62,398 bases of DNA, filler included, from Bradymonadales bacterium (GCA_007693605.1; 5 parts of 5 records of this genome joined end to end with filler, not necessarily neighbours in it); one strand, 5' to 3'; counted from the whole stretch's first letter, positions 2,203 to 26,618 are shown. Notes: generated by a model from the letters alone, not told the origin. Made by a program: numbers and translations.

Positions 2203-3462
2203 TGCGGTAGTTAGGGTAAGCGTTGACAAGACGCGCTTGGTCAGTGGCGTATTTGTCTACGATTTTTACGCAGCGCTTTCCAGTTCTTTTTCTCCTTCAT
2301 TTTCTGAGACATAGTTTTTGGCAAGCTCGATGCCATCAAGGAAGGTCTCCATGGGTGTACGTCCACGGCAGTACTTGCCCTGGTTCGTGCGATCTTCGTT
2401 GTAGCTTTGCATGAAGGCGTCGAGATCTGTCTGGAGCTCTTCCAGGCTCTTGTAGATTTTTTTCCTCAACTCCACTCGGTAAAATTCATCCAAAAGCGTC
2501 TGGTTGAGTCTTTCTGTACAACCATTGGTCTGCGGGTGGCGTGCCTTTGTGCGGCTATGTTCAATGTCGTTTAAGTGCAAGTAAAGCTGATAGGGGTGGG
2601 CTGAGAGGTTTCCGCAGTACTCCGTCCCCCGATCCGTCAGCGTCCGAAGAAGACGAAGTCCTTGGCTGTCAAAAAACGGCAGGACCTTGTCGTTTAGAAA
2701 ATCGGCTGCCGTGATCGCCGTTTTATCGAGATAGAGCTTGGCAAAGCCCACATTCGAAAACGTGTCGATTCCCGTCTGCTGATAAATTCGACCAATCCCT
2801 TTGATGTAGCCGATGTAGCAGGTGTCTTGGCCGAGTAAAAAGCCCGGGTGAAAGCTCTCAATCTCGCCGTGAGCCTGCTTTTCTTCCTTAGCCACCTCCA
2901 GGGCTTGGACCTGAGATTCGGTAAGAATATTCTTCTCCTCAGCCGCCCATTTCTCCAGACGCTTGAGACGAAGAGCTCGAACCTGGAGGCCGTGCCGTAC
3001 CCACACCTGCCGGATCCCACAAGGCGAGATGTGAATGTTCTGAGTGCGCTTGAGCTCGTTCGACACTCGAGTCTGGCCGTGCATCGGCTGGTGGAGGCTG
3101 TACTCCAAAATCGCTTCTTCCCACTCCAAAGGAATCTGGTTACTCCTTCGAGTCCGAGTGCGAGCCTTCGCCATCAGCCCCTCTAAACCCTCTTCTTCCA
3201 AAGTATTCTTGATATCGTAGTAGTGCTGACGCGATATCCCAAGCTTTCGACATGCCTCAGAAATATTTCCAAGCTTTTCTGAAAGCTCCACAATGTTCAA
3301 TTTACGATTGATGATATACTGACTTCTGTTCATTGGTGTTCTCCTTGTGTTCAGTGGTTGTTTGTTTTTTCCAAACTAAATTTTACCACTGACCAAGGAG
3401 TCACCTTGACCATCTGCTTCTCACGCAATGTTCCAATGTCAACGCGTTAGCTAACTAACCCA
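2203..3462 (-). mobile_element. Complete IS481-family insertion sequence (1260 bp)
   Basis: Imperfect 26-bp terminal IRs (2203-2228 and 3437-3462, 20/26 identical); direct repeat AATTAGC at 2196-2202 and 3463-3469. Confidence 0.93.
2266..3333 (-). CDS. IS481-family DDE transposase
   Basis: N-terminal HTH (NISEACRKLGISRQHYY), QDT...TDRGTEY...NGCTERLN DDE core, YNEDRTNQG...GRTP. Confidence 0.95.
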   Translation of the reverse strand: MNRSQYIINRKLNIVELSEKLGNISEACRKLGISRQHYYDIKNTLEEEGLEGLMAKARTRTRRSNQIPLEWEEAILEYSLHQPMHGQTRVSNELKRTQNIHISPCGIRQVWVRHGLQVRALRLKRLEKWAAEEKNILTESQVQALEVAKEEKQAHGEIESFHPGFLLGQDTCYIGYIKGIGRIYQQTGIDTFSNVGFAKLYLDKTAITAADFLNDKVLPFFDSQGLRLLRTLTDRGTEYCGNLSAHPYQLYLHLNDIEHSRTKARHPQTNGCTERLNQTLLDEFYRVELRKKIYKSLEELQTDLDAFMQSYNEDRTNQGKYCRGRTPMETFLDGIELAKNYVSENEGEKELESAA

Positions 3463-13840: not shown

Positions 13841-14065
13841 CCACTTCTCCTCTATCAGCATATTCGCGACACAGGCTCGCCCACTTCGTAGAAATATTCA
13901 ATCGATCTTTCAGTTTCTCTTCAGTGGCGGGCGTCCGAAAATCCAAGCTTCGCCAAAGCTTTCCAGACCCCAAGACGGGAAGTCGTGCCTCATGGTGAGA
14001 CATTGATGGCCCCACTAAGGCCTAATCTTTCTCGTGGGCAATCCCCCGCAGCCCGGCACATGCCA

Positions 14066-14081
14066 TGGCACACTTCTTGCT
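14066..14081 (+). promoter_or_regulatory. Sigma54 (-24/-12) promoter
   Basis: TGGCAC-ACTTC-TTGCT, a perfect consensus; overlaps the ORF-track start, so the real start is probably 14095. Confidence 0.75.
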
Positions 14082-14094
14082 GCTTAAACAATCT

Positions 14095-15234
14095 ATGTAT
14101 CGGTTTCTAGCAGCTATTCTTAGTCTCCTAACCGGTTCTCCTGCATTGGCAGACGACGCAAAGTGCGACAACTCACAGGGTATGGTGGGATTCATCAATT
14201 CCGCACACAGTCAAGTAAAGGGAGAACTTCCCCCCAATATAGATCGAAATTTCTTCTCATTGACAGACAATGAAAGAGTTAAGCGCATCGAAATTGGTGA
14301 CTGGGCCCACAGGGACTACTGGCCTGAAGCGCTCGGAGGCTTGGGTCGTAGACCAAAGGCCCAAAAGCTCTACGAAAATGAACTCCGCCGGCATTTGTTT
14401 CGAGGTCGGGAGATTAGAGCGGCCCTCATGAACAAGGCCTGTCGGGAGGCCTATCAGGATCCCGAGTTCTGCGATGAAATGAGAATTGATGAGCTCTCGC
14501 CTGTGGAAAAGCTCATCATCATTGCAAAGAGAAAGGGAATCCAACTCCCTGAAGATGTGGCGGAATCAGATGCCGATTCCTTTTGTGGCGGTGAGGACGA
14601 GCACTGGGAAGGCTCCTGCGGATTCAATGATCTCTTGGCGCTCAGCGTTCCCAAACCTCAACCTGGCCGGGAGGTCTCGGGCGTCCCTCTTTCAGAGGAT
14701 GACCAGGTTGCCATATGGCACCTCCTCCTGAGTGAGACCATTCCCTACAATGACAGACAACTCGTCTTCGGCGAGACCGAGCATCCCGATGTCACAGGTG
14801 CTGACTTTCTCATTCTTCTGGGTAACATGTATCAGCAAACAGATTCGAGCTTCCTTCGTGTTAATACTCACACTGGAAGAAATACCGAGATTTGGAACTC
14901 GGCGATAAAAAGTTATCAAATTCTCAATCGATCACGAATATCGAGACGGGATTATATTCACCAAACTCCATCAGGATTTACACCGGACGAGTCTTCTCAA
15001 TTTTGGACAGTAACAGTTCAGCTAGAACTGTCCAAAGGTCCGCCTATTTTGACGAGAGTCATTGTTGCTCTCGACAGTGATGGAAACATCCTAGCAGGGG
15101 ACTTTATTCTTCCTTTGAAGTTCGATCGCAGAATTGTGGCACATGAAGGACGTATCGATTTTGAAAAGGTCTTGGCGTTTTCTGACATGCCAGAACTTCT
15201 TGAATCCCTACTAGAAGAGTTTTCTCTTCGTTAA
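14095..15234 (+). CDS. Secreted transglutaminase-elicitor-like protein (divergent)
   Basis: Signal peptide ending ALA; YWP...LSPVEK...WEGSC...IWN motif order resembles the TGase-elicitor family. Confidence 0.55.
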   Translation: MYRFLAAILSLLTGSPALADDAKCDNSQGMVGFINSAHSQVKGELPPNIDRNFFSLTDNERVKRIEIGDWAHRDYWPEALGGLGRRPKAQKLYENELRRHLFRGREIRAALMNKACREAYQDPEFCDEMRIDELSPVEKLIIIAKRKGIQLPEDVAESDADSFCGGEDEHWEGSCGFNDLLALSVPKPQPGREVSGVPLSEDDQVAIWHLLLSETIPYNDRQLVFGETEHPDVTGADFLILLGNMYQQTDSSFLRVNTHTGRNTEIWNSAIKSYQILNRSRISRRDYIHQTPSGFTPDESSQFWTVTVQLELSKGPPILTRVIVALDSDGNILAGDFILPLKFDRRIVAHEGRIDFEKVLAFSDMPELLESLLEEFSLR

Positions 15235-15380: not shown

Positions 15381-15725
15381 GTGGTCTCACTTCCCATTCA
15401 GAGCCAGGCGGATATTTTAGGCGCTCTCTCGAGGCTAAACAGTGTGCCCGCATGCGTCCAGTGCATAGACCACTTCTTCCACCCTCCGACGCTGAATCGA
15501 AGAATTGGCATTGATATATCGCTCGACTTTGTTTTCCTTCGAGCATACACATTGAGATTGAATATGCATTCCTTCTATCACCTTTATGTAGTAGTTGGTG
15601 ACAAGAAGAATGCGGACTCCCTTGAGACTCGCAGGGGCACCGCAGGCCTCCCCGATGTTTGCGCTCCTGCTAAATTGAAAGTTTTCGACCTGCGAGGATC
15701 GTGTGAGCGAGTCAATTCGGTTTAG
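15381..15725 (+). CDS. Hypothetical protein overlapping the kinase start
   Basis: 114-aa ORF filling the gap and overlapping the kinase by 23 bp; a competing minus-strand ORF exists. Confidence 0.3.
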   Translation: MVSLPIQSQADILGALSRLNSVPACVQCIDHFFHPPTLNRRIGIDISLDFVFLRAYTLRLNMHSFYHLYVVVGDKKNADSLETRRGTAGLPDVCAPAKLKVFDLRGSCERVNSV

Positions 15726-17070
15726 CTCGATTGCTCGCGAAGCCTCTCGCAAGCTCAGCCTTCGGTTTTCAATCCTTGGCTTCCTTTTAGTGACGCTTGT
15801 CGCAGTTACATTCCTCGTAAAGACAAATTCTCAGCAAGCCCATGTTCTGATCACGAGCTTAGAGAAAAACTTTGCTCATGATATTGTGGTGGGAGATCAT
15901 TTTCAGATTACTCGAAGATTGGATTCCTTGTTAGCGAGCAATGTTATCGTCGCCGCTTGGATTCACTCCCAAAAGCCCTCAGTACTTGTAGCGTCGCAAC
16001 CCGCTGATTTTGAATACAGAGCGGATTTGCATGGCTGGCACTTTCCAAGCCTGTTGCAACCCGTCTACTTCGATTCGGCTCCACTTCTCTCGACCTTTGG
16101 TGAGGAGGTGGGCCGAATCACCTTTGGTATAGGATTTCCAGCGAATGTATTAGTCTTCGTGTTTATCGGCCTGATCTTCTTTTTCCTTGTGGTTTCAGCC
16201 TCACTGAGAAGAGGCTTCACTTTGTTGGCCGACAGACTGACTCAGCCCCTCGAGAGCTTCGCACGCCAGGTAGAAGGGGCCGATGCTCAGTCTGGCCTTC
16301 AGAGTTTGAAAGCCACCCATACTCCCATCTTAGAGCTTGAAATGTTTAGACAGAAACTTTTTGATTTTTGGAGTCGAATTGAGGCTTATCAAGAGGGGGA
16401 AAGAAGGCTTCAAGAAGAGCGGGTGATCATTTCGGTTGCGAAACAGGTTTCTCACGATATTCGCTCTCCCGTTTCTGCGTTGCGCTTTTTGGAGGCAAGT
16501 TCTAAGAGTTTAGAATCTGAAGAGCGAGAGATTATTCGATCGGCTATAGGAAGAATAAAGTCGATTGCGGACGATTTTCTGAAAAGATCAAAAGGGCTTG
16601 CTCTAGAAAGAGTAGACTTGCCAGCATTTGCACAAAGAATAGATACCTTGATTGTCGAGAAGAAACTAGAGAATGCAAACCTCAGCTGGAATGTTCAGTT
16701 TGAGAGACAGGCTGAACTTTTGCCTAGAAGTGTTTCGATCCAGACAACAGTTTGGGATAGGATCTTATCCAATCTTCTCAACAACTGTATCGAAGCTCGT
16801 AAAGTAGACGAGGAGCTAAGTGTTCGTATTCTCTTATCAACTAGCGATCACGGGCTTTGTATTGTATTGGAAGACAACGCCAAAGGAATCCCCCCCAATA
16901 GGATGGAGGCTTTCTCGGGCGGCGAATTCAAGAGTTACGGCAAGAAATTTGGCCATGGCCTTGGGCTCACCCATGCTAGGGAACATATCCGGGCCTGGAA
17001 TGGCAGCATGAAGATCTCCTCTGAAGAAGGACATGGAACAAAAATAGAAATCTTTCTTCCATTTATCTAG
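15703..17070 (+). CDS. Membrane sensor histidine kinase
   Basis: 2 TM helices, QVSHDIRSP H-box, SNLLNNC N-box, EDNAKGI, GHGLGL, GTK. Confidence 0.93.
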   Translation: MSESIRFSSIAREASRKLSLRFSILGFLLVTLVAVTFLVKTNSQQAHVLITSLEKNFAHDIVVGDHFQITRRLDSLLASNVIVAAWIHSQKPSVLVASQPADFEYRADLHGWHFPSLLQPVYFDSAPLLSTFGEEVGRITFGIGFPANVLVFVFIGLIFFFLVVSASLRRGFTLLADRLTQPLESFARQVEGADAQSGLQSLKATHTPILELEMFRQKLFDFWSRIEAYQEGERRLQEERVIISVAKQVSHDIRSPVSALRFLEASSKSLESEEREIIRSAIGRIKSIADDFLKRSKGLALERVDLPAFAQRIDTLIVEKKLENANLSWNVQFERQAELLPRSVSIQTTVWDRILSNLLNNCIEARKVDEELSVRILLSTSDHGLCIVLEDNAKGIPPNRMEAFSGGEFKSYGKKFGHGLGLTHAREHIRAWNGSMKISSEEGHGTKIEIFLPFI

Positions 17071-18571
17071 CGGAATTGATTTGGATTCGATGAAAGAGTA
17101 TGGATTGCTCCTGAAGAGGGTCTGAAATCTGGCGAACGACCCTGGTGCATCGAGGATATGCAACCTGTTCTTCGAACAATGGAATCACACGGTGAACTCC
17201 ATTAAAATGCTCCGCCAATCTACGGACCGCCTGCTCGCGCCGCTCAGGGTCTGCTTCACTCCGAGCTCTCTCCAATAGGCGAAGGTATTCTGCGTCTTCC
17301 AACCCTGAATTTGCTACATATGGACCTCCGTCCTTGAATATCTCGAAGATTACCAAGGCATCCGCCACATTTGGCATCCAGCCAATCAGCCAAAAAGGAG
17401 ATCTCTCATCCGCTGGATCAAACAATCTCATGTTGGCCTGTCGAAATCGAAGCTCCACCCCAGATGCTTCAAACTGACCCTGGAGCTCAACCATCCACGG
17501 ATGTGGATCTTTAACATAAATTGGAATATCTAAACTCTTGATACCGAGCTTTTCAAAGATTTGCTTGGCACGAGCCCCATCCATTCTCTCCTCTGGAGCT
17601 AGATCTCGCGCTACTAACCGCTCAGGAATGAGCCATGTGCTCGGCCGAGAATGAGAGGATCTCTCTGCCAAGGCTGCTCGGTTCAAGACCAAAGAGACCG
17701 CCTCTCTAAAGTCCTGGCTCGAACCCAGAGAAGATCGAAAATTAAAGGCAATCGCATAAATTCTGGCCGGAACATTTAAGACTTCTAGGCTAAGATCTTC
17801 ACCATGAGAAAGATCATTTGAACCAAGCACAAGTTCAGCATCGGTCGTGCTCAGGTCAGATGTAAGATGGATCCTTTTCGGCCGATCTGGATGAGCCGAA
17901 GGAAAGGAGCCAGTCGAAGCCAATATCAGGTTCCTTTCGTCAAGCTTAACAACTCGATAGGGGCCTGCGCCGACAGGATAGCTCTTCCAACGGAGTCCGT
18001 CTTCCAACAAATGCTCTCTCGGCACCAAAGACAATCCGCTCATTGACAAACGGCCTACGAAAAAGGGATTCGGATTCTTAAGGACAACTTCCACTTCCAA
18101 TTCATTGAGAATGCGAACCTCTTCAATGTCCTCAATGTTGGCTCGCTCAGGCGTTTCTTCAGAGGAATTCAGGTGTCGCATCAAACTGAACCTCAGATCT
18201 TCCGCCTCAACGGGTCGCCCGTCATGAAACACAAGATTCGATTGAAGCTTCAGACTAAATCTCTTTGATGACTCATTTCGCGACCAAGACTGCAACAATG
18301 CCGGCACAACCTTCCCCTCTGCAGTCATATTGACTAAATGGCCCAACACCGCGTTGTATACCGTGACTCGGGGGTAAGCCCGTGGATTCCACGGACCTTC
18401 CGTCGGAAAAAACTCACCGCCCTGAAGGTCCACGAAAACCTTCAGATTGCCGCCATCGGTAGCTGAAGCCTGTATCATGGAGCTACTCAAGCTACAAAAA
18501 GAAAGCGCGCAAAGCAAAAGAAAGAGGGGGGACCTCATACCAAAACTCTGAAAGCGAAACCAATCTATCAT
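17063..18571 (-). CDS. Family 5 (peptide/nickel) substrate-binding protein
   Basis: LVFHDGRPVEAEDLRFS, PVGAGPY, VIPLF; signal peptide (real start possibly 18538). Confidence 0.9.
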   Translation of the reverse strand: MIDWFRFQSFGMRSPLFLLLCALSFCSLSSSMIQASATDGGNLKVFVDLQGGEFFPTEGPWNPRAYPRVTVYNAVLGHLVNMTAEGKVVPALLQSWSRNESSKRFSLKLQSNLVFHDGRPVEAEDLRFSLMRHLNSSEETPERANIEDIEEVRILNELEVEVVLKNPNPFFVGRLSMSGLSLVPREHLLEDGLRWKSYPVGAGPYRVVKLDERNLILASTGSFPSAHPDRPKRIHLTSDLSTTDAELVLGSNDLSHGEDLSLEVLNVPARIYAIAFNFRSSLGSSQDFREAVSLVLNRAALAERSSHSRPSTWLIPERLVARDLAPEERMDGARAKQIFEKLGIKSLDIPIYVKDPHPWMVELQGQFEASGVELRFRQANMRLFDPADERSPFWLIGWMPNVADALVIFEIFKDGGPYVANSGLEDAEYLRLLERARSEADPERREQAVRRLAEHFNGVHRVIPLFEEQVAYPRCTRVVRQISDPLQEQSILFHRIQINSAR

Positions 18572-18719
18572 TTAGGGGATCCTTATGGCTCGATTTGACC
18601 AAAAACTCAAGTCCTCCCCGAAATTTTTGGAGTCTGAAATGCCCAGAAAGTTTGCATTCGGCGTCAAGGCGTGGTATTTCCAGGCTTCAGTCAATCTAAA
18701 AGTGTTTGGAGAAGAGGCC

Positions 18720-18881
18720 ATGGAAAGAGAAATCATTGCTCAAGTTACTGAAAGTGCTGCTAAGTTTGCCGATAAAGCCGTTCAGAGTCTCAACAGCGAG
18801 ATTTTTACGAAGCTCTTGGAAACCGTTACAAGCGAGATAAGCCAGGAGCTTATCAAGTACGCCAGCAGCTCACAGGTCTGA
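18720..18881 (+). CDS. 53-aa putative RiPP/signal precursor peptide
   Basis: ATG at 18720 with GGAGAAGAGG RBS; MEREIIAQVTESAAKFADKAVQSLNSEIFTKLLETVTSEISQELIKYASSSQV; first gene of the SBP-HExxH operon. Confidence 0.65.
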   Translation: MEREIIAQVTESAAKFADKAVQSLNSEIFTKLLETVTSEISQELIKYASSSQV

Positions 18882-18897
18882 ATTCTACTCCGAAGTC

Positions 18898-20421
18898 ATG
18901 CAGACGAGAATTAGCGTGGTTTTTGCCTTTCTGTCTGCTGCTCTTGTTTTCAATCCCGCGAGTGCTGAGAGCTTGAGAGTCTGGCTGGATGGTAAGGGGA
19001 AGAAGGCTTACGACCCCGAAGCTTCAATCTACGCAGCTGCCCCATTCATGTCGGCCGTGTTTGGGCACCTCTTACATACAGACTCCTCTTACAACCTGAA
19101 ACCCGGCTTACTTAAGTCCTGGCGATGGGACTTTAAAGAAAAAGTTTATATTCTTGAACTGAGAGAAGGGCTTTTCTTTCACTCTGGAAGACCAGTCACA
19201 GCCAAGGATTTGGAATTTTCGATTCTTCGAGGCTTCTTCTCCTCCAGGGCCAGTTTCTACAGGCAAATCCTAAGCAATCTTGAAGGAACAGATAAGATTG
19301 AAGTTGGGCAAAGCTTCAAACCGGGCGCCGTCTCTGGCGTGACAGTCCTGGATGAGCGGCGCCTAAAGATAAAACTGCAGAGACCAAATCCGTCTTTTCT
19401 TCACAGTCTATCGTATAGCTACTTGTCCATCGTGCCTCAAGAAGCTCTTCGAGACGACTATTTCACTTGGAAGGACCTTCCCGTTGGCGCGGGACCCTAC
19501 AAAGTGGTCAATAGCGATTCTCAATCGAGTCGTATTCGTCTCGAGGCAGTCTATGGCAGTGGGCCGAAGGTTGTTGAAGTTTTCACAGAAAACGACCGAA
19601 CGGGTGCCGATTTATTGCTCTGGGTGAACAGCTCACCTGAAATGAACAAAATGAAGCGAGTGATTGGACCGCAAAGCAATTCCGCTACCATGCTTTTTTT
19701 TAACTATGAACACCCGTTGGGAAACGATATTCGGTTTCGAAAGGCCCTGTCGGCAGGCCTTCGTCGCCAGGCCCTTGTAACTGGTCAGAAGGCTTTCAAG
19801 CCAACATACGAATTGCTTCCCTCTCATTTTTGGGGAAGAGCGGGCATTGCTGACCCCTATGATCAAGCAGAGGCTAAGAAGTTACTCGCGGAAGTTCGAA
19901 AAGCACACCCTGAGCTCCTCAACGCACCAATTCGAGTCTCTGTAAGAACTTCTGACTTTTTTGAAGACTCCATCAAACTGCTTAAGGAGCAGTTTGACAG
20001 CCTTGGACTCCAAGTTGATATTTTCTTTGACACCGAAAAGCATGTGGCACGCAGCGAAACTGGGATATGCTTATTTGTCTATTCGCTCGCTTTTTTTGAT
20101 TTAGACCCGCTCTTGAAGTTTTGGAACTTTGTTCGCTATCCAAACAATCCTCTTTACAATGCAGCACCCCCGAAGGACGAAAGGCTTTTGTCTCTTCTGG
20201 AGGAGGCTGGCTCGGCGGAGTCCTTCGATGTTCGAGTCGAAACGATAAAATCGCTTTCTCAATATGTCATTGACCAGTCCTTTGTTGTTCCTCTCTATGA
20301 GCGACTAGCCAGCGTCATTTATAACCCTAGTGTGATCTCGGATCTCGGGCATCAAGACGGGTTCATCTGGTTTTACCTTAACCACTTGAAACTGCAGAAA
20401 AAGCCTAGAAATGAAAATTGA
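18898..20421 (+). CDS. Family 5 (peptide/nickel) substrate-binding protein
   Basis: Signal peptide ending ASA; LFFHSGRPVTAKDLEFS, PVGAGPY, VVPLY; paralog of 17063-18571. Confidence 0.9.
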   Translation: MQTRISVVFAFLSAALVFNPASAESLRVWLDGKGKKAYDPEASIYAAAPFMSAVFGHLLHTDSSYNLKPGLLKSWRWDFKEKVYILELREGLFFHSGRPVTAKDLEFSILRGFFSSRASFYRQILSNLEGTDKIEVGQSFKPGAVSGVTVLDERRLKIKLQRPNPSFLHSLSYSYLSIVPQEALRDDYFTWKDLPVGAGPYKVVNSDSQSSRIRLEAVYGSGPKVVEVFTENDRTGADLLLWVNSSPEMNKMKRVIGPQSNSATMLFFNYEHPLGNDIRFRKALSAGLRRQALVTGQKAFKPTYELLPSHFWGRAGIADPYDQAEAKKLLAEVRKAHPELLNAPIRVSVRTSDFFEDSIKLLKEQFDSLGLQVDIFFDTEKHVARSETGICLFVYSLAFFDLDPLLKFWNFVRYPNNPLYNAAPPKDERLLSLLEEAGSAESFDVRVETIKSLSQYVIDQSFVVPLYERLASVIYNPSVISDLGHQDGFIWFYLNHLKLQKKPRNEN

Positions 20422-21364
20422 AGACCTTGGTGAGTTTTTCATGGGTCAAAGAGGTCTTGAAAAAATTTCCGCCCTTTCGCAAAAGCTCTATACTCAAATC
20501 CGGCAGGAGTGCGAAAATGAGCTTGGCTGCGAATTTTCGTATTACCACCCGGGCATGGCACTCCTTGGCAAACGAGAGGCTCTAAAGAAACTCTATTGGA
20601 TGAGTGAAGCACCCGATGTCGAGTCGCGACCCGAAGCTCTCGAATTGTATCGAAAGGCAATCGAAACAGAATCAGACTTTCTAAGCGCTCTGCACTTTGA
20701 TTCCCCATTCAAAAACCGGCGGATTGCGACAGGCTGCTCAACAGATACGCGGGCCTTCTACGAACGGATGCGAGAAGCAAAACAATTTCTTCTTACTAGC
20801 CACCCCCTCTTGGCAAAGAGATATTCCGCGCTCGTCTACAGTATTGTCCCACTCGAAGCTCTGGAAGACTCTAACGATCGCACGGGGGTCAGCGGCACTC
20901 ACCGATCGGGAGCAAGTTCGAAACTCCTGCGAGGGGCAATCCTCCATGTCTTACCTTGTTTTCCTGAGATTGAGTTTTGGAAGATAGATTTAGCCGTCGA
21001 TTATGCACATGAAGTGGGTCATCAGGCCTTGGATGTATATCTCGCGGCAGATCGCATCTTGAGCTCTCCTTATGAGGAGCCCGTGTATTCTCCGATTCGA
21101 AAAGTCAATCGCCCCGCCATCATGAGTCTTCATGCCAACGCAGCTTTGGCCTACATAGTCGAGGCTATCTTGTATTTTCGAAATCGACAGGATCTATCCG
21201 ATTCCGAGCAAGATTACCTTCTTAGCGAACATAAGAAATTTCTCACCGATATCAATGACGGCATAGCAGCCATGGAGGACTCGTCGGTGCGTTGGACCCC
21301 ACTGGGTCAATTGATTTTCGATGAGCTTCGAACTACCCGAGATCTGACAGAAAGGCTGTGCTAG
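20411..21364 (+). CDS. HExxH-motif peptide modification enzyme (aKG-HExxH beta-hydroxylase type)
   Basis: SGASS..LRGAI, AHEVGHQ (HEVGH at 21008-21022), YSPIR...RP....LHA; overlaps the SBP stop by 11 bp. Confidence 0.85.
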   Translation: MKIEDLGEFFMGQRGLEKISALSQKLYTQIRQECENELGCEFSYYHPGMALLGKREALKKLYWMSEAPDVESRPEALELYRKAIETESDFLSALHFDSPFKNRRIATGCSTDTRAFYERMREAKQFLLTSHPLLAKRYSALVYSIVPLEALEDSNDRTGVSGTHRSGASSKLLRGAILHVLPCFPEIEFWKIDLAVDYAHEVGHQALDVYLAADRILSSPYEEPVYSPIRKVNRPAIMSLHANAALAYIVEAILYFRNRQDLSDSEQDYLLSEHKKFLTDINDGIAAMEDSSVRWTPLGQLIFDELRTTRDLTERLC

Positions 21365-21529
21365 TACTCAGGTTTAACTTGAGATCCTGTTTGTATTCTT
21401 TGGAGATTGGTCATAGTGAGCTTCCCCAGAGACTGAAGCCTCGAAGCCTATTGCGAAGCCATCCGCACCAGTGCTGTTGACTTGAATTCACTCTTGCCAA
21501 TGCTCATCTTTATCCCGAGACTGGGGCAG

Positions 21530-24028
21530 ATGCGCCTGCCACGACTATGTTTTTTTGCTCTAGTCATGGTAGTGGGTGGTTGCGCGCCAAAAGCGCCCCC
21601 CATCTCGAATCAGGCATCGGAGCACCCGAAGTATCCTCTCTTAAACTGGCAGGTACTTGGCCCCTTCAACCTTGCTCCTCGTGAGGGGGCTAGAAATTTC
21701 ACCGGTGAAACTGACGAATCAACTTTATCGCCCTCTGCTTCTACCTTTTATTCCGAGCTTGTCCCGACGGGAAGGCTCAAATGGAAATCTTTCGCGAGCC
21801 GAGGATCAAAAATTGATTATGAGTTTGACAATGTAGATTGGCATGCACTTCAGAGCGAACACGGTCGCCCCGGAGTTTTCGGAATGAGCTATCTCTACAC
21901 CGAACTTGCATTAGACGAGGCAAGAACTCTTCAGATCTCACTCAAAGGAGTTCCTGAGTTTTACATCAATGGACAACTTTGGTTTGGCGAGGCCTACCAG
22001 TTTTCTGATCAGAGAATTCCAATTCCTTTCAAAGCGGGCCTAAATCGAATTCTACTCAAAGTGCCAAACTTCGGGCCTAAGCTTAGCTTTCAGTTTCAGA
22101 TTGATGAGCCCACCAGTGCGGTTAGCGTTTTATCAAGCATCACCGCGCCGGATGTTATTGAATGTCCGGCAGACTACTGGCTCAGTTTACCTCTGACAAA
22201 CAACACTTCGAGCTGGCTCCGAAATATTTCAGCTCGAACAGCATCGAATCTGTGGAGGCTTGAATCTTGGCCTCTTGATATCGCACCCCATTCCGTTGGC
22301 GTGGCAAAACTAAAACTTCATTGCAAAGAATGGCCTGACGGAGATAAATTCTCGATCCCTATTTCGATCGAATCAAGTGGTAAGAAACTGTTGATGTCTT
22401 ACGAGATTTCATTGCAGAGAAAGGACCGAACAAAAGATCATATTGTTACTTTTGTTTCGGAACTGGACAACTCCGTTCAGTACTATGCTATCAAGCCACC
22501 CTCTCTCCCCCAGGATGGAGAAAAGTCGTCTCTTATCATTGGTTTACACGGAGCAAGCGTTGAAGCCCGGAGTGCCATGAGATCCTACTCTCACAAGCCC
22601 AGGGCCTTTACGGTTTTGCCCACCAATCGTCGTCCTCATGGTTTCGCTTGGCAGGGCATTGGAAGATTGGACGCACTAGAAGTTCTTGCCAATGTTCAAG
22701 ACAATTTCAATATAGATAAAGACAGAATTCATCTGACCGGCCACTCCATGGGCGGTCAGGGTGCCTGGCATATTGCAACACACCATCCTGATCGTTTTGC
22801 TTCGATCGTACCCGCAGCAGCATGGACCAGTCTTAGTCGGTACTTGTCCGACCACCTGAATGTTGCTTCCACCTATGCGTCACCTCAAATTGAAAGTTAC
22901 TTTAGAAGAGTCACCGCATCGAAGGATCATATGCGATTTCTTACCAACGCTCGAAGCCTGCCGGTACTGATGCTTCATGCGCTTGGAGACGAAGTCGTCT
23001 CAGCTTTCCACTCAAGACTCTATCAGCGAATGTTCGACCTGGCAGGGGGTCAGTCGAGTATCTTGGAGTTGGAATCGAAAGAGCATTGGTGCCACCAGGT
23101 CTCAGCATTTGAATCAGAGGGCTATGCCTGCGTTAATCCTCCTCAGGCAGATGAGTTTTTCGAAAGGCATACTCGGCCCTCCTCGCCACCGCGTGATTTG
23201 AAGCTTAAGATTTGGGATCTCTCTGCAGAAAGAAATTTCTGGTGGTTGACTTTGTTGAGTCAAGAACGCGTGTTTTCTGAGACTGAGGTGAATGCTACAT
23301 GGAACGACAGCAATCACCTGATTATTGAAACGACAAATTTGAAAGCATTTGAAGTCCGCCTGCATTCCGGTTGGGCACTCAACAAGATTGTCTGGAACGA
23401 CAACGAGATTGAATTTGAAGTTGTAGAGGAAGAGGGCAGACGCCTTGTTCGCGTCGGCAAGATTGACTCCAAACGAATCGGGGATATGGCAGGGGGGCCC
23501 GAACAAGTATTCTATCGACCCGCCATCATAGTCTACGGAGATTCAACCGATCTTCATACTGCTCGCCTGTTGAATCATCTTTACTGGAGAGCGGCAAACG
23601 CAAGTCTCCCCATTTACTCGAGTCGAGAAGTGTCTGCTGAGCTTCTGCAGGAATACAATTTGATTCTGATTGCCGACCACCAGGACCCCCTGATGAAACG
23701 ATTGCTCAACTCCACCCCGTTCAGAGTTGAGCAGGAGGCCATTACATGGGAGGGTGGTTCAGTTTCGGGTTCTCTCGGTTTCGTGACTGGGTACCCAAGT
23801 CCATGGAGCGAGAGGCAGCGTGTTCTCGCTCTCACAACCACCAACTCTCGAATGAAAGATAAACTTCTATTTTTCCGTCCGTTTTCCAATCGATCTGGAT
23901 TGGGCCTTCCAGACTTCATGGCATTTGATTCAAATGTCACCCACAAGCTCATGGGCGGAGTTCGATTGGCAGGTTTCTACTCTAATGATTGGGGCTTGGA
24001 CAACCATGACTACACCGTGGTGGATTAG
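21530..24028 (+). CDS. Lipoprotein alpha/beta-hydrolase (S9 peptidase/esterase-like)
   Basis: VGGC lipobox; LHGA, TGHSMGG nucleophile elbow, GDEVV acid, EHW His. Confidence 0.8.
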   Translation: MRLPRLCFFALVMVVGGCAPKAPPISNQASEHPKYPLLNWQVLGPFNLAPREGARNFTGETDESTLSPSASTFYSELVPTGRLKWKSFASRGSKIDYEFDNVDWHALQSEHGRPGVFGMSYLYTELALDEARTLQISLKGVPEFYINGQLWFGEAYQFSDQRIPIPFKAGLNRILLKVPNFGPKLSFQFQIDEPTSAVSVLSSITAPDVIECPADYWLSLPLTNNTSSWLRNISARTASNLWRLESWPLDIAPHSVGVAKLKLHCKEWPDGDKFSIPISIESSGKKLLMSYEISLQRKDRTKDHIVTFVSELDNSVQYYAIKPPSLPQDGEKSSLIIGLHGASVEARSAMRSYSHKPRAFTVLPTNRRPHGFAWQGIGRLDALEVLANVQDNFNIDKDRIHLTGHSMGGQGAWHIATHHPDRFASIVPAAAWTSLSRYLSDHLNVASTYASPQIESYFRRVTASKDHMRFLTNARSLPVLMLHALGDEVVSAFHSRLYQRMFDLAGGQSSILELESKEHWCHQVSAFESEGYACVNPPQADEFFERHTRPSSPPRDLKLKIWDLSAERNFWWLTLLSQERVFSETEVNATWNDSNHLIIETTNLKAFEVRLHSGWALNKIVWNDNEIEFEVVEEEGRRLVRVGKIDSKRIGDMAGGPEQVFYRPAIIVYGDSTDLHTARLLNHLYWRAANASLPIYSSREVSAELLQEYNLILIADHQDPLMKRLLNSTPFRVEQEAITWEGGSVSGSLGFVTGYPSPWSERQRVLALTTTNSRMKDKLLFFRPFSNRSGLGLPDFMAFDSNVTHKLMGGVRLAGFYSNDWGLDNHDYTVVD

Positions 24029-24202
24029 AGGGCATTCTGAAGCTAGCAGAGCTTTGCCGGCCTTGGCCCCGAATCGACGAGCATCCAACGCAGCGCTGTG
24101 TGTGGATAGGCGACACAGTTTCATTGACTATGTGAGGGCAAAGAGTTGGATCTTTTCCGGATTAGTTGGGATGTAGTGCGTTAGATTTGGGTTTTTGAGG
24201 AG

Positions 24203-24308: not shown

Positions 24309-26618
24309 TTACCGGAGACCGCCGCCCAGCCCGCTGATTGAAAGGCGCCGCAGCCCAGAACCCCCAACCCCCCAGCCCCAAACATTGTACCCCCCCCCCC
24401 GTCGAATTCGCCAGTCGATGGGAACATGGCACTGCTCACAATCGGTGACGACGACATTTCGACCGCCTCCGTGGGGGTCTGGATCTTGAGTGAAGGTGCT
24501 TACAAAAGAATCGACATGACAGAAGTAGCAGTCACTCGGCAGCCCTTGATAGACCTGATTCACATGACAGCTTTCGCAAGAGGCAAAGCGATGAGCGCCC
24601 GTCAGGCGGAATCCTGTCGTATTGTGCCGGAAAGTGCTCGGATGCCAAGCCGTCTGGGTATGGCAGTCTTGGCACTCCAAGCCGAAGGCGCCCAAGTGAA
24701 TGTCATCAGCCTCGTGGCACCAGGCACAAAGACTTCCTAAGCCCTGCAGGTTGGTGTCGGGTCGGTGGCAGGCCTGGCAGTCGAGCTGATCGTGAGCCCC
24801 TTCAAGTTTAAAGAATCCTAGGTCGTGAACTTTTTCTCCGCCGACCACTTCAAATCGGCTGGTGTTGTGACAAGATTCGCACTGTGTTCCGTAAGCTCCC
24901 TGATGAACATCGATATGGCAGTGAACACAGGCTTTGGCACTCCAGGCGCCAGAGCTGCCCGGAATGGAATAATCTTGAAGAAGGTGTTGGGGGTGACAGT
25001 TCTGACAAGAAATCTCTGCATGTCTTCCGTCTAACTGAAATCCGAAGTCACTATGTTGAAAGTTTCTCACCAAATGAAAGCCCTCGGTGCGATGACAGTC
25101 AGCGCATTGATTTGACATGGCCGCACCATGTGGGTCGGCATGACAGGATTGGCAGTTTGGCTCATCATTGCTTGCGGGCATATTCTTAAAGATCTGTTCG
25201 ACATGGCATGAAAGACAGGCCACATCTTGGTGTTTGCCCGTTAGTCGAAAGTTGGTTTGTCGGTCGTGATCAAAATCAATCCAGGCAAAGCTCGTCGTAT
25301 TATGACAGTCGTGACAAGTTCGATCGATTTGTCGCTCTGGGTGCACATTCACATGGCAGTCGGAACACTCCCCAAACGCAAGCTCTTGAAACTGCCCTTG
25401 GTGGTGACACTGGTTGCACTGAATAAACTGATGTTTTCCTACAAGAGGAAAGTCCGTTTTCTGGTGGCGGGCGAGGTCAAACGAAGACTCGGTAAATCGT
25501 CTCTCTTCGACATGGCAATCCTGACAACTTTGGTTTGCAAACTGATTTCCGTGAGGCAGGCCGTGGCAGTGGGAACATTCCTGAAATCCCGTATCCGGAA
25601 ACTTATACTTCTTTTCCTCTGAGTAGTGGCAGCTCTCACAAGAGACTGCCTGGTGGTAGCCCTTAAGTGGAAATCGGGTCTTATTATGATCGAAGTCCTT
25701 CAGCTCAGGGGCCACGGGTTCGACCACCGTCCACTTCTTGAAGACCGAATGGCAAGATTCACAATCGCTTCCAAACTTGCCTTCGTGAACATCATAGTGA
25801 CAGTCGGTACATTGTTGAAAGGGCAGGGGAGCGAATCGGGTGACGGAGCTTTCGCCGGGCTGTACCTGATGACAATCGACGCAGCCGACCGATCGGTGTA
25901 GCCCCACCAGAGGATAACGAGTCGTATTGTGGTTAAAGGGCATTGGACTTGCCATTCGCTTCCAAGACTCAATTCCTGAAGAATGACAGTCGGTACAAAT
26001 CAGCCACTCGCTTCTCGAAAATTCGTGTCGATAGACATCGGCATGGCAGTCGTAACAGGCTGTGGGGGCGCCCAGATAAGAGCGGGTTTCGGTGGCTTCT
26101 CCTGTTTGGTAGTGTCGTCGGTAAGTGTTGTGACAATCGGCACATTCCACTTGTTGATGCTTTCCAATTAGGGGCCATTGAGCATCACGAGAGTGGTCGA
26201 ATGCAGGCATTTCTCTTTGTTGATCGGGAGGTCCATACAAATAGCCTTCTACCCAGTTGGGGTTGGGTGCGAAGATATAGGCATCTCGACCCTGGTGCTC
26301 TGAATGGCAGTCTGAACACTGATCTTTGCCTCGGTGGTAGCCTCGGTTCTCTTCAATTCGTTGGCGAATCTCAAAATGACAGTCGAGGCATTTACTGAAC
26401 TCAAGATCTCCTCCCAACTGATTAACATGGCAACTGACGCAGCCACGAACGCCGTCATATTCTTGGTGGTGCTTGCTGAGGTCGCCAGGCGAGCGAGTCA
26501 CCAAATCTCTCAGAAAGGATTGGGCTTGAAGCTCAGAGACGTCCCAGGCTAAAAACACCACAAGGGCGAGCACTCCCTGAAAAAAAAGCGAAATATATGA
26601 GTGACTTATGCCCTTCAC
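24309..26618 (-). CDS. 27-heme c-type cytochrome (nine triheme repeats)
   Basis: 27 CxxCH motifs counted by hand; recurring FDH..T.F.L.G.H unit; signal peptide; the C-terminal tail after a G11 run is doubtful. Confidence 0.92.
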   Translation of the reverse strand: MKGISHSYISLFFQGVLALVVFLAWDVSELQAQSFLRDLVTRSPGDLSKHHQEYDGVRGCVSCHVNQLGGDLEFSKCLDCHFEIRQRIEENRGYHRGKDQCSDCHSEHQGRDAYIFAPNPNWVEGYLYGPPDQQREMPAFDHSRDAQWPLIGKHQQVECADCHNTYRRHYQTGEATETRSYLGAPTACYDCHADVYRHEFSRSEWLICTDCHSSGIESWKRMASPMPFNHNTTRYPLVGLHRSVGCVDCHQVQPGESSVTRFAPLPFQQCTDCHYDVHEGKFGSDCESCHSVFKKWTVVEPVAPELKDFDHNKTRFPLKGYHQAVSCESCHYSEEKKYKFPDTGFQECSHCHGLPHGNQFANQSCQDCHVEERRFTESSFDLARHQKTDFPLVGKHQFIQCNQCHHQGQFQELAFGECSDCHVNVHPERQIDRTCHDCHNTTSFAWIDFDHDRQTNFRLTGKHQDVACLSCHVEQIFKNMPASNDEPNCQSCHADPHGAAMSNQCADCHRTEGFHLVRNFQHSDFGFQLDGRHAEISCQNCHPQHLLQDYSIPGSSGAWSAKACVHCHIDVHQGAYGTQCESCHNTSRFEVVGGEKVHDLGFFKLEGAHDQLDCQACHRPDTNLQGLGSLCAWCHEADDIHLGAFGLECQDCHTQTAWHPSTFRHNTTGFRLTGAHRFASCESCHVNQVYQGLPSDCYFCHVDSFVSTFTQDPDPHGGGRNVVVTDCEQCHVPIDWRIRRGGGYNVWGWGVGGSGLRRLSISGLGGGLR

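Follow-up and report, generated by a model that had tools for sequence, protein, structure and literature searches.

Could a Gram-negative bacterium make, modify and sense a peptide of its own with the few genes of one compact locus? This question is raised by a 62,398-nucleotide stretch of DNA from a Bradymonadales bacterium (GCA_007693605.1), here called the window at its full length, in which parts of five records of the genome are joined by filler and of which positions 1-24202 are one contig of a 2.19 Mb, 90% complete genome. The region studied begins at 15381 and holds a small open reading frame (ORF), a stand-alone protein with an HExxH motif, two family-5 solute-binding proteins (SBPs) and a membrane-bound sensor histidine kinase, which an earlier note on this DNA had read as a module for peptide quorum sensing. 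The core of this locus is a real, conserved cassette that is found in many Bdellovibrio-like bacteria. That it encodes a circuit in which a peptide would be made, oxidised at its tail by the HExxH enzyme, exported and sensed, an SBP relaying it to the kinase and the regulator being encoded elsewhere, is the reading preferred here, at a probability of roughly 0.55. The genes on which this reading draws are:

15703..17070, plus strand: sensor histidine kinase of 455 amino acids (Pfam HATPase_c at E 2.7e-17, and HisKA; no receiver domain)
17063..18571 (probable start 18538), minus strand: SBP1, a family-5 solute-binding protein with no adjoining permease (PF00496 at E 1.7e-28), divergent from the peptide operon
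18720..18881, plus strand: candidate precursor peptide of 53 amino acids (80 amino acids from an alternative start at 18639), with GGAG 8 nt upstream and in the same position as in relatives
18898..20421, plus strand: SBP2, a family-5 solute-binding protein with a Sec-type signal (PF00496 at E 1.9e-35)
20411..21364, plus strand: stand-alone oxygenase of the alpha-ketoglutarate (aKG)-HExxH type, 317 amino acids, predicted peptide maturase (TIGR04267 match, ChlH profile and fold matches)

All ORFs named earlier were found at their coordinates. The tight operon noticed earlier holds: the peptide, SBP2 and HExxH genes are co-oriented and nearly abut (a gap of 16 nt between peptide and SBP2, an overlap of 11 nt between SBP2 and HExxH). 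A hydrolase gene further downstream is taken up below. The kinase and SBP1 genes run tail to tail with their 3' ends overlapping by 8 nt. Pfam scans of all contig ORFs of at least 150 amino acids, bar one nested in another, returned no ABC permease or ATPase, and none of the genome's nine radical SAM matches lies on the contig, both as first noticed.

Relatives of the HExxH protein were found in 23 of 401 genomes of the phylum with the protein as query and in 106 of 401 as profile matches, the closest of them mostly in Bdellovibrionota (17/20). The matches come in two sizes, short (about 260-340 amino acids) and long (about 390-520 amino acids). Sixty short-type loci were scored, of which two on short contigs had no profile-called HExxH ORF, so that 58 remained. 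In one set of 20 loci, nine had been dropped as duplicates, and two near-identical pairs are still counted. A family-5 SBP and a kinase lay within 5 kb of the short HExxH gene at 47 of the 58 loci, compared with 0 of 23 long-HExxH loci (SBP 0/23, kinase 1/23), although the latter are a weak control because they are apparently one orthologous locus. By set, the pair was present at 21/24 loci in the one used to build the profile and at 3/5, 14/18 and 9/11 in those that followed, and six of the 11 misses are cuts by contig ends. Metagenome contigs had both genes at 10 of 18 loci, most of the others being short and some repeating known loci. The long HExxH-type protein (L016:7674-9101, L018, L019, L110-L129; 385-524 amino acids) appears to mark one conserved locus in a Bdellovibrionota family (f10, in which 73 of 100 genomes have an HExxH match), with no SBP nearby.

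No peptide-type radical SAM was found near the related loci with a local profile, and a scan for CxxxCxxC near relatives gave three proteins, including one HhH-bearing radical SAM that was judged unrelated. The recurrence of small ORF, SBP and kinase without a radical SAM, proposed in the earlier note as a check, is borne out, SBP and kinase being present at 47 of the 58 loci. Eight of the genome's nine radical SAMs are of housekeeping type; the sole unassigned one (L136:1477-2361, on contig G000:C16) is a 294-amino-acid protein that no NCBIfam family matches at E 1e-25 and that lacks a SPASM domain. As no radical SAM is fused to the enzyme or encoded nearby and no SPASM domain was matched in the 90%-complete genome, a cyclophane scaffold is not expected.

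The HExxH protein contains the motifs H200-E201-x-x-H204, S227-P228-x-R230, R234-P235 and H241, and H200, E201, H204, R234 and H241 are invariant in all 23 rows of an alignment with 22 relatives. A search against HExxH-domain models, as had been proposed, gave a match to TIGR04267 at E 9.2e-9, but its 35.5 bits fall under the curated cut-off of 40; the second HExxH copy of the same genome reaches 79.2 bits. Over its positions 62-295, a profile of the 23 rows matches ChlH (8S5F) at E 1e-18 with the motifs in register, and an AlphaFold model of the protein (pLDDT 88) matches the same structure at E 6e-11 with a TM-score of 0.61; among solved structures, 8S5F chains and SjiH were the only Foldseek matches at E <=0.001. 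The Atlas agrees with an oxygenase assignment. Searching with the single sequence returned only the protein itself from the protein database and nothing from the PDB, and searching the protein database with the profile returned five proteins. Judged by motif and modelled fold, although not by curated score, the protein is a divergent aKG-HExxH oxygenase. An ordinary zinc peptidase, for which the small ORF would not be a substrate, would fit the missed cut-off, and PflC is able to hydrolyse a leaderless substrate (PMC12636437); this explanation is nonetheless highly improbable, as no Pfam family matches the protein and, of the structures solved so far, ChlH and SjiH alone match significantly by profile and by fold. 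The two computable findings that were to count against the original idea, a grouping with zinc proteases and a lack of conserved synteny, therefore both failed to appear.

That the enzyme stands alone had been put forward as new; however, HExxH enzymes unfused to radical SAM are already published, among them PflC/PosC and BpmH (PMC12636437) and PesO (PMC13060819), and BipH is also covered in PMC12707348. In the account of PflC/PosC, Gln hydroxylation is accompanied by an oxidative backbone cut at the Ala of ARMD that leaves an amide (PMC12636437), so the chemistry of such an enzyme cannot be read from its family name. The expectation of a plain +16 Da hydroxylation is met by these enzymes as far as hydroxylation goes, but is too narrow, since they also cleave the backbone. 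A relative in Roseateles (L086:7393-8507) lies downstream of a 55-amino-acid ORF with a double-glycine-like leader end and has no SBP or kinase; going by its sequence, it is the same enzyme clade in the setting of an ordinary ribosomally made, post-translationally modified peptide (RiPP).

The 53-amino-acid peptide has a leader-like helix, SEIFTKLLETVTS, followed by a C-terminal core ending in KYASSSQV, and contains neither a signal peptide nor Cys. Its frame is open further upstream, where a second plausible start with a ribosome-binding site (RBS) lies at 18639, and translation from upstream starts at 18585 or 18639 gave no canonical signal peptide (hydrophobicity 0.97, versus 1.7 to 3.5 in 27 signal-like precursors). 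In most relatives, small ORFs, mostly with a good RBS, adjoin the SBP or HExxH gene, and 45 of these, including two from the window's genome, were chosen by hand as precursors. Changes between relatives' precursors are concentrated at third codon positions in 8 of 8 close pairs, which argues that these small ORFs are genes. The window's enzyme belongs to a clade of 23 rows (support 95, in a tree from a quick search and not the finished one), in which many precursor tails run from an amphipathic helix through a linker to an aromatic-x-x-x-S-F end, and the stretch SEIFTKLLETVTSEISQELIKYASSSQV of the window's peptide aligns with them by eye without gaps. When a position-specific scoring matrix was trained on 18 precursors of this clade with the window's peptide held out, the peptide ranked 1355, 130 and 8 of 28,282 genome ORF tails at widths of 22, 24 and 26, and its score was reached by 484, 34 and 1 of 2000 shuffles. 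The helix pattern of another held-out precursor, L157 (39 amino acids), is alike by eye. A regular expression for the leader that matched 2 of 28,282 tails was rejected as circular, having been written after the peptide was seen. With the same position and C-terminal pattern as the precursors of relatives, the 53-amino-acid ORF has moderate support as a precursor.

In a sister clade, precursor tails follow the pattern IFD-x6-AR[MA]D, exactly so in 3 of the 45 precursors and with looser A/S/V/L-R endings in about a dozen. The spacing IFD-x6-ARMD is that of PflA/PosA, the substrates of known HExxH enzymes (PMC12636437), and it ties the cassettes to characterised HExxH chemistry. Secreted-type precursors that end in IFD-x6-AR[MA]D are encoded at L096:6762-7046, L097:6521-6808, L099:6475-6759 and L103:6547-6870, and PflC-like oxidative amidation is predicted for these four.

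How would the peptide reach an SBP outside the cytoplasm? Using a crude hydrophobicity rule, 27 of the 45 precursors had a signal-like N-terminus, and 26 of those 27 had no major facilitator superfamily (MFS) gene nearby (three MFS flags were set by hand). The 18 other precursors comprise two misses of the rule (L061, L081) and 16 that are truly signal-less; eight of these 16 are accompanied by an MFS gene, five by a kinase with a fused MFS-like domain and one by a seven-transmembrane (TM) MFS-like neighbour, while the remaining two are one that is not at an SBP/kinase locus and the window's own peptide. The five fusion kinases have 10-12 TM helices, and their N-terminal domain, which has no Pfam match, matches the cassette MFS profile with a probability of 99.4, as in a fusion of exporter and sensor. 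These fusion kinases are 870-1003 amino acids long (L070:1193-4201, L091:1652-4663, L101:3054-5678, L105:201-2936, L021:5459-8074) and always accompany short signal-less precursors. The pattern of either signal or MFS implies delivery of the peptide to the compartment of the SBP, and the family looks built to move a peptide out of the cytoplasm, the window's copy being the exception. The family may then work as described with this copy rearranged or partly disabled, so that its precursor has lost a signal and the locus only listens or is decaying. Besides the lack of an exporter at the locus, the kinase is oriented opposite to the usual arrangement, most precursors of the window's HExxH clade have signals, including that of its tree neighbour L052, and the contig carries an integrase-type gene and a repeat at its end. 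However, all frames are full length, the catalytic motifs are intact, and signal-less precursors with the same leader pattern occur elsewhere (L065, L067, L157), so that decay of this copy is held to be quite improbable.

The two SBPs are 28% identical and, in a FastTree phylogeny with long branches, both fall in a clade of 28 cassette SBPs (support 100). The genome has two further SBPs, which lie outside this clade and are of transporter type; one of these (on C76) precedes OppB/C-type permeases, unlike the cassette SBPs. SBP2 belongs to a clade of 24 rows (support 98) and corresponds to the single SBP of most related cassettes, and the best named among its solved relatives are peptide-binding proteins of the OppA/DppE type. 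Twin SBPs, which had been presented as a defining trait, occur at only 4 of 58 loci (L052, L063, L064, L081) and look, from the tree, like separate duplications. An ancient heterodimer was rejected as an explanation, in that the pairs of L052, L063 and L064 are each sisters and the window's two are not.

In the kinase, two TM helices are combined with a periplasmic domain of about 105 amino acids, HisKA with H251, and HATPase. It can be aligned from end to end with 22 kinases from related cassettes, and its N, G1 and G2 boxes are intact. The N-terminal region is of the cassette type, and no Pfam family matches the sensor domain. The locus thus shows the ChiS/LuxQ-type arrangement, a permease-free SBP gene next to one for a two-TM kinase whose H-box is intact. 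Across 39 loci, SBP distances correlate with distances in the sensor region of the kinase (rho 0.55, or 0.40 as a partial value given HExxH) but hardly with those of the kinase core of the same gene (rho 0.09), and HExxH and SBP distances also correlate (rho 0.53), bearing in mind that kinship and differing rates inflate or blur such values. A receiver-bearing regulator, mostly of NtrC type, lies within 5 kb at 27 of the 58 related loci. Predicting the complex of SBP2 with the periplasmic domain of the kinase gave a score of 0.00, which, without controls, is evidence in neither direction. Relays from SBP to kinase are established for CBP-ChiS, LuxP-LuxQ, TorT-TorS and HptA-HptS (PMC12704726), and by analogy with these the SBP of the cassette would contact its kinase and the peptide would be the ligand.

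The known SBP-kinase pairs, on the other hand, sense environmental ligands (PMC12704726), and here too the pair may sense an outside cue, such as prey- or host-derived peptides, and turn on the genes for peptide and enzyme, so that the peptide would be an output and not the ligand. On another contig, the same genome has a second cassette (L013:157-6435, G000:C45) that encodes an aldo-keto reductase, an HExxH protein and a 40-amino-acid ORF, with a divergent SBP, a kinase and an MFS protein; its SBP and sensor group with GNAT-type cassettes and its HExxH protein elsewhere, which suggests module swapping. Sensor and maturase modules that can be reshuffled in this way would suit an outside cue, as would the lack of a visible export route for the window's peptide. 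Nevertheless, the distances of HExxH and SBP remain correlated, the SBP gene is mostly within the peptide-enzyme operon, and the either-signal-or-MFS pattern implies that the peptide reaches the SBP's compartment; sensing of an outside cue is accordingly considered unlikely. In the GNAT-type subgroup, a GNAT-like gene lies between SBP and kinase (L057:5403-6161, L065:5454-6185, L066:5505-6218, L067:10609-11352, L149); a SnoaL-like gene takes its position at L058 and L061, and L062 has a similar gene.

Hydroxylated residues can chelate metals, and those of the modified peptide could do so. The peptide may therefore be the working molecule, a metal chelator or scavenger, in which case SBP and kinase would read the loaded peptide, that is, the environment and not cell density. 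Family-5 SBPs include binders of metal complexes (NikA and CntA are weak matches), and many relatives' precursors are 95-165 amino acids long, which is long for a pheromone. Sec-exported RiPPs such as bufferins moreover bind metals (PMC12452194). Speaking against a metal-binding product, neither a permease nor an outer-membrane receptor was recognised among the neighbouring genes, in a search that had no profile for either and left most unlabelled neighbours unscanned, and the tails vary among clades and share no Cys/His ligands, which fits private signals better. I regard a metal-related role as unlikely, though as the likeliest of the alternatives to the preferred circuit.

In the preferred circuit of a peptide that is made, exported and sensed, a cytoplasmic HExxH enzyme holding Fe(II) by H200, H204 and probably H241 would dock on the amphipathic leader helix at about residues 25-45 of the peptide and oxidise its tail, Y47-A48-S-S-S-Q52-V53. 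The favoured chemistry is PflC-like, with beta-hydroxylation (for example of Gln52), alpha-hydroxylation at Ala48, or both. Alpha-hydroxylation at Ala48 would sever the peptide so that a Tyr47 amide is left, and because the oxidation itself would do this, no dedicated protease would be needed for that end. Judging from relatives, the product would exit the cytoplasm via Sec from signal-bearing precursors or via MFS from signal-less ones; the window's copy would have to draw on an export route encoded outside its locus, such as the MFS protein of the second cassette. The liganded periplasmic SBP would then switch the kinase, as in CBP-ChiS and LuxP-LuxQ, and the kinase would phosphorylate a response regulator encoded elsewhere, which is often of NtrC type beside related cassettes.

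Several observations weigh against this circuit. The window's precursor is the sole signal-less one among SBP/kinase cassettes with no exporter at the locus, and the cassette-type MFS of two relative families was not found in the genome, which does have MFS genes elsewhere, including that of the second cassette. No response regulator lies on the contig, where none of the genome's 23 receiver matches falls, as had been remarked before. Support for the 53-amino-acid ORF varies with motif width, its rank moving from 1355 to 8; a hidden Markov model built from 22 precursor tails does not single it out, giving E 7.3 and the 15th-best domain score of 52,627 segments, and its tail lacks the S-F or ARMD ending of relatives. 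No precursor was found at several intact loci, such as L017, L049, L063 and L104, and the misses in the synteny counts other than contig-end cuts are three intact loci with a kinase but no SBP and two with neither. Nickel, heme and sugars are further ligands of family-5 SBPs, and binders of heme, opines and nickel are among the matches. Finally, the loci are kin, and the counts and correlations overstate their independence.

Quorum sensing by the peptide, as put forward in the earlier note, would be a further step suggested by these sequences. The window's copy has neither an export route nor a regulator at the locus; among relatives, an export route is present in nearly all that have a precursor, and a regulator at the 27 loci mentioned above. 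It is a tentative view, held at somewhat less than even odds, that Bdellovibrionota carry private peptide-signalling cassettes in which an HExxH-hydroxylated or amidated ribosomal peptide is exported by Sec or by an MFS, in some cases fused to the kinase, and presented to a kinase by a dedicated family-5 SBP.

Two further features of the region complete the layout:

18539..18719, no strand assigned: intergenic region between SBP1 and the peptide operon, which diverge from it; promoters are inferred from the gene layout
21482..24028 (probable start 21530), plus strand: alpha/beta-hydrolase lipoprotein, a neighbour outside the cassette, with a match at 0 of 58 related HExxH loci

In the intergenic region no sigma-70 site was called and no strict sigma-54 match was found, and promoter and terminator scans did no better than shuffles (6 versus 7.8 and 12 versus 9.8). 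Over 12 kb, 0 reads came from two RNA runs and no RNA holder is listed, so that these afford no test of expression.

The hydrolase had been assigned the trimming of the peptide as an S9-like protein, and this claim is not supported. With a probable start at 21530, 165 bp past the HExxH stop, the gene is not tightly coupled to the operon; a match to PF00326 covers residues 397-539 only, and the best matches among solved structures are esterases. Orthologs are present in 6 of 13 genomes of the same family and in 0 of 137 others, at unrelated places with no SBP or HExxH gene within 1.5 kb, and in the three ortholog genomes that have an HExxH cassette the hydrolase is on another contig. Neither the co-occurrence nor the likeness to prolyl oligopeptidase that mark S9 leader peptidases of RiPPs was found, and the protein is judged from these comparisons to be an esterase-like bystander with no part in the cassette.

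An ORF of 114 amino acids at 15381, the start of the studied region, has no Pfam match and no relative among 147 loci, and is probably not a gene. Upstream of the kinase lies a 389-amino-acid ORF (14065-15234) whose N-terminus is signal-like; it matches neither Pfam nor NCBIfam and has no relative among the same 147 loci. The same contig carries an integrase/transposase-type gene at 2266-3333, and it ends 174 bp past the hydrolase in a repeat (24137-24202) that is common to the ends of three other contigs. Past the N gap, on another contig, 24309-26618 encodes a 769-amino-acid multiheme c-type cytochrome that is unrelated to the cassette.

How does the cassette compare with known systems? ComQXPA and agrBDCA also bring precursor, modifying enzyme and histidine kinase together in one conserved cassette, with a kinase that binds the peptide directly; the present cassette would instead interpose an SBP, in a Gram-negative host and with Fe/aKG oxidation. 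None of its components is known to be homologous to those of ComQXPA or agrBDCA apart from the generic kinase core. The ligands of CBP-ChiS, LuxP-LuxQ, TorT-TorS and HptA-HptS are sugars, autoinducer-2, trimethylamine N-oxide and similar compounds. Like the cassette, these systems encode a periplasmic binding protein with a membrane kinase, but none of them is known to have a locally encoded, enzyme-modified peptide as ligand, and the window's sensor domain is small by comparison. In predicted chemistry, the cassette is close to PflC/PosC of the Pseudomonas pfl/pos clusters, where a stand-alone aKG-HExxH enzyme acts on a neighbouring precursor with no radical SAM and no cluster protease, and whose IFD-x6-ARMD spacing recurs in the sister-clade precursors (PMC12636437). 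Unlike those substrates, the window's peptide lacks an NHLP leader, poly-Gln and ARMD, and no MNIO-nitroreductase is encoded at its locus; the pfl cluster in turn is described (PMC12636437) with GNAT and transporters and without SBP or sensor kinase. Radical SAM-HExxH fusions of the ChlBH/FxsB type (PDB 8S5F) share the HExxH fold and metal motif with the window's enzyme, which, unlike these and the triceptide and FxS/His-Xaa-Ser clusters, has no radical SAM fused or nearby. In bufferins (PMC12452194) and other Sec-exported RiPPs (see also PMC11626156) a cytoplasmic iron enzyme acts on a precursor with a Sec signal, such as 27 of the 45 cassette precursors have; these differ in that their enzymes are MNIOs, their chemistry is Cys-based and they bind metals, whereas the peptide of the window has neither Cys nor signal.

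No description of the cassette was found in the literature, searched at the level of listings and abstracts and including few subscription papers, where supplements to HExxH networks could list such clusters. Each part has known kin, and the combination was not encountered in the literature searched; it is not a member of the agr/ComQXPA, triceptide or pfl families. What has been added here is the ChlH fold, synteny with a control, removal of the hydrolase, the either-signal-or-MFS pattern together with the MFS-kinase fusions, and the link to ARMD.

Signalling by modified peptides via histidine kinases counts as a textbook trait of Gram-positive bacteria. If the circuit is true, it would amount to modified-peptide quorum sensing in Gram-negative bacteria with a receptor architecture not described in the literature searched, and for a Bdellovibrio-like phylum it would put names to a peptide signal, to its maturase and to a periplasmic receptor of two parts. 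The products of aKG-HExxH enzymes would gain a biological role as well; for pfl/pos, the function of the final product could not be studied (PMC12636437). The cassette can be tested, because Peredibacter sp. HCB2-198, a named strain with a complete genome, carries one copy (L084). Should the chemistry alone hold, about 45 pairs of enzyme and precursor with varied tails would be ready for co-expression.

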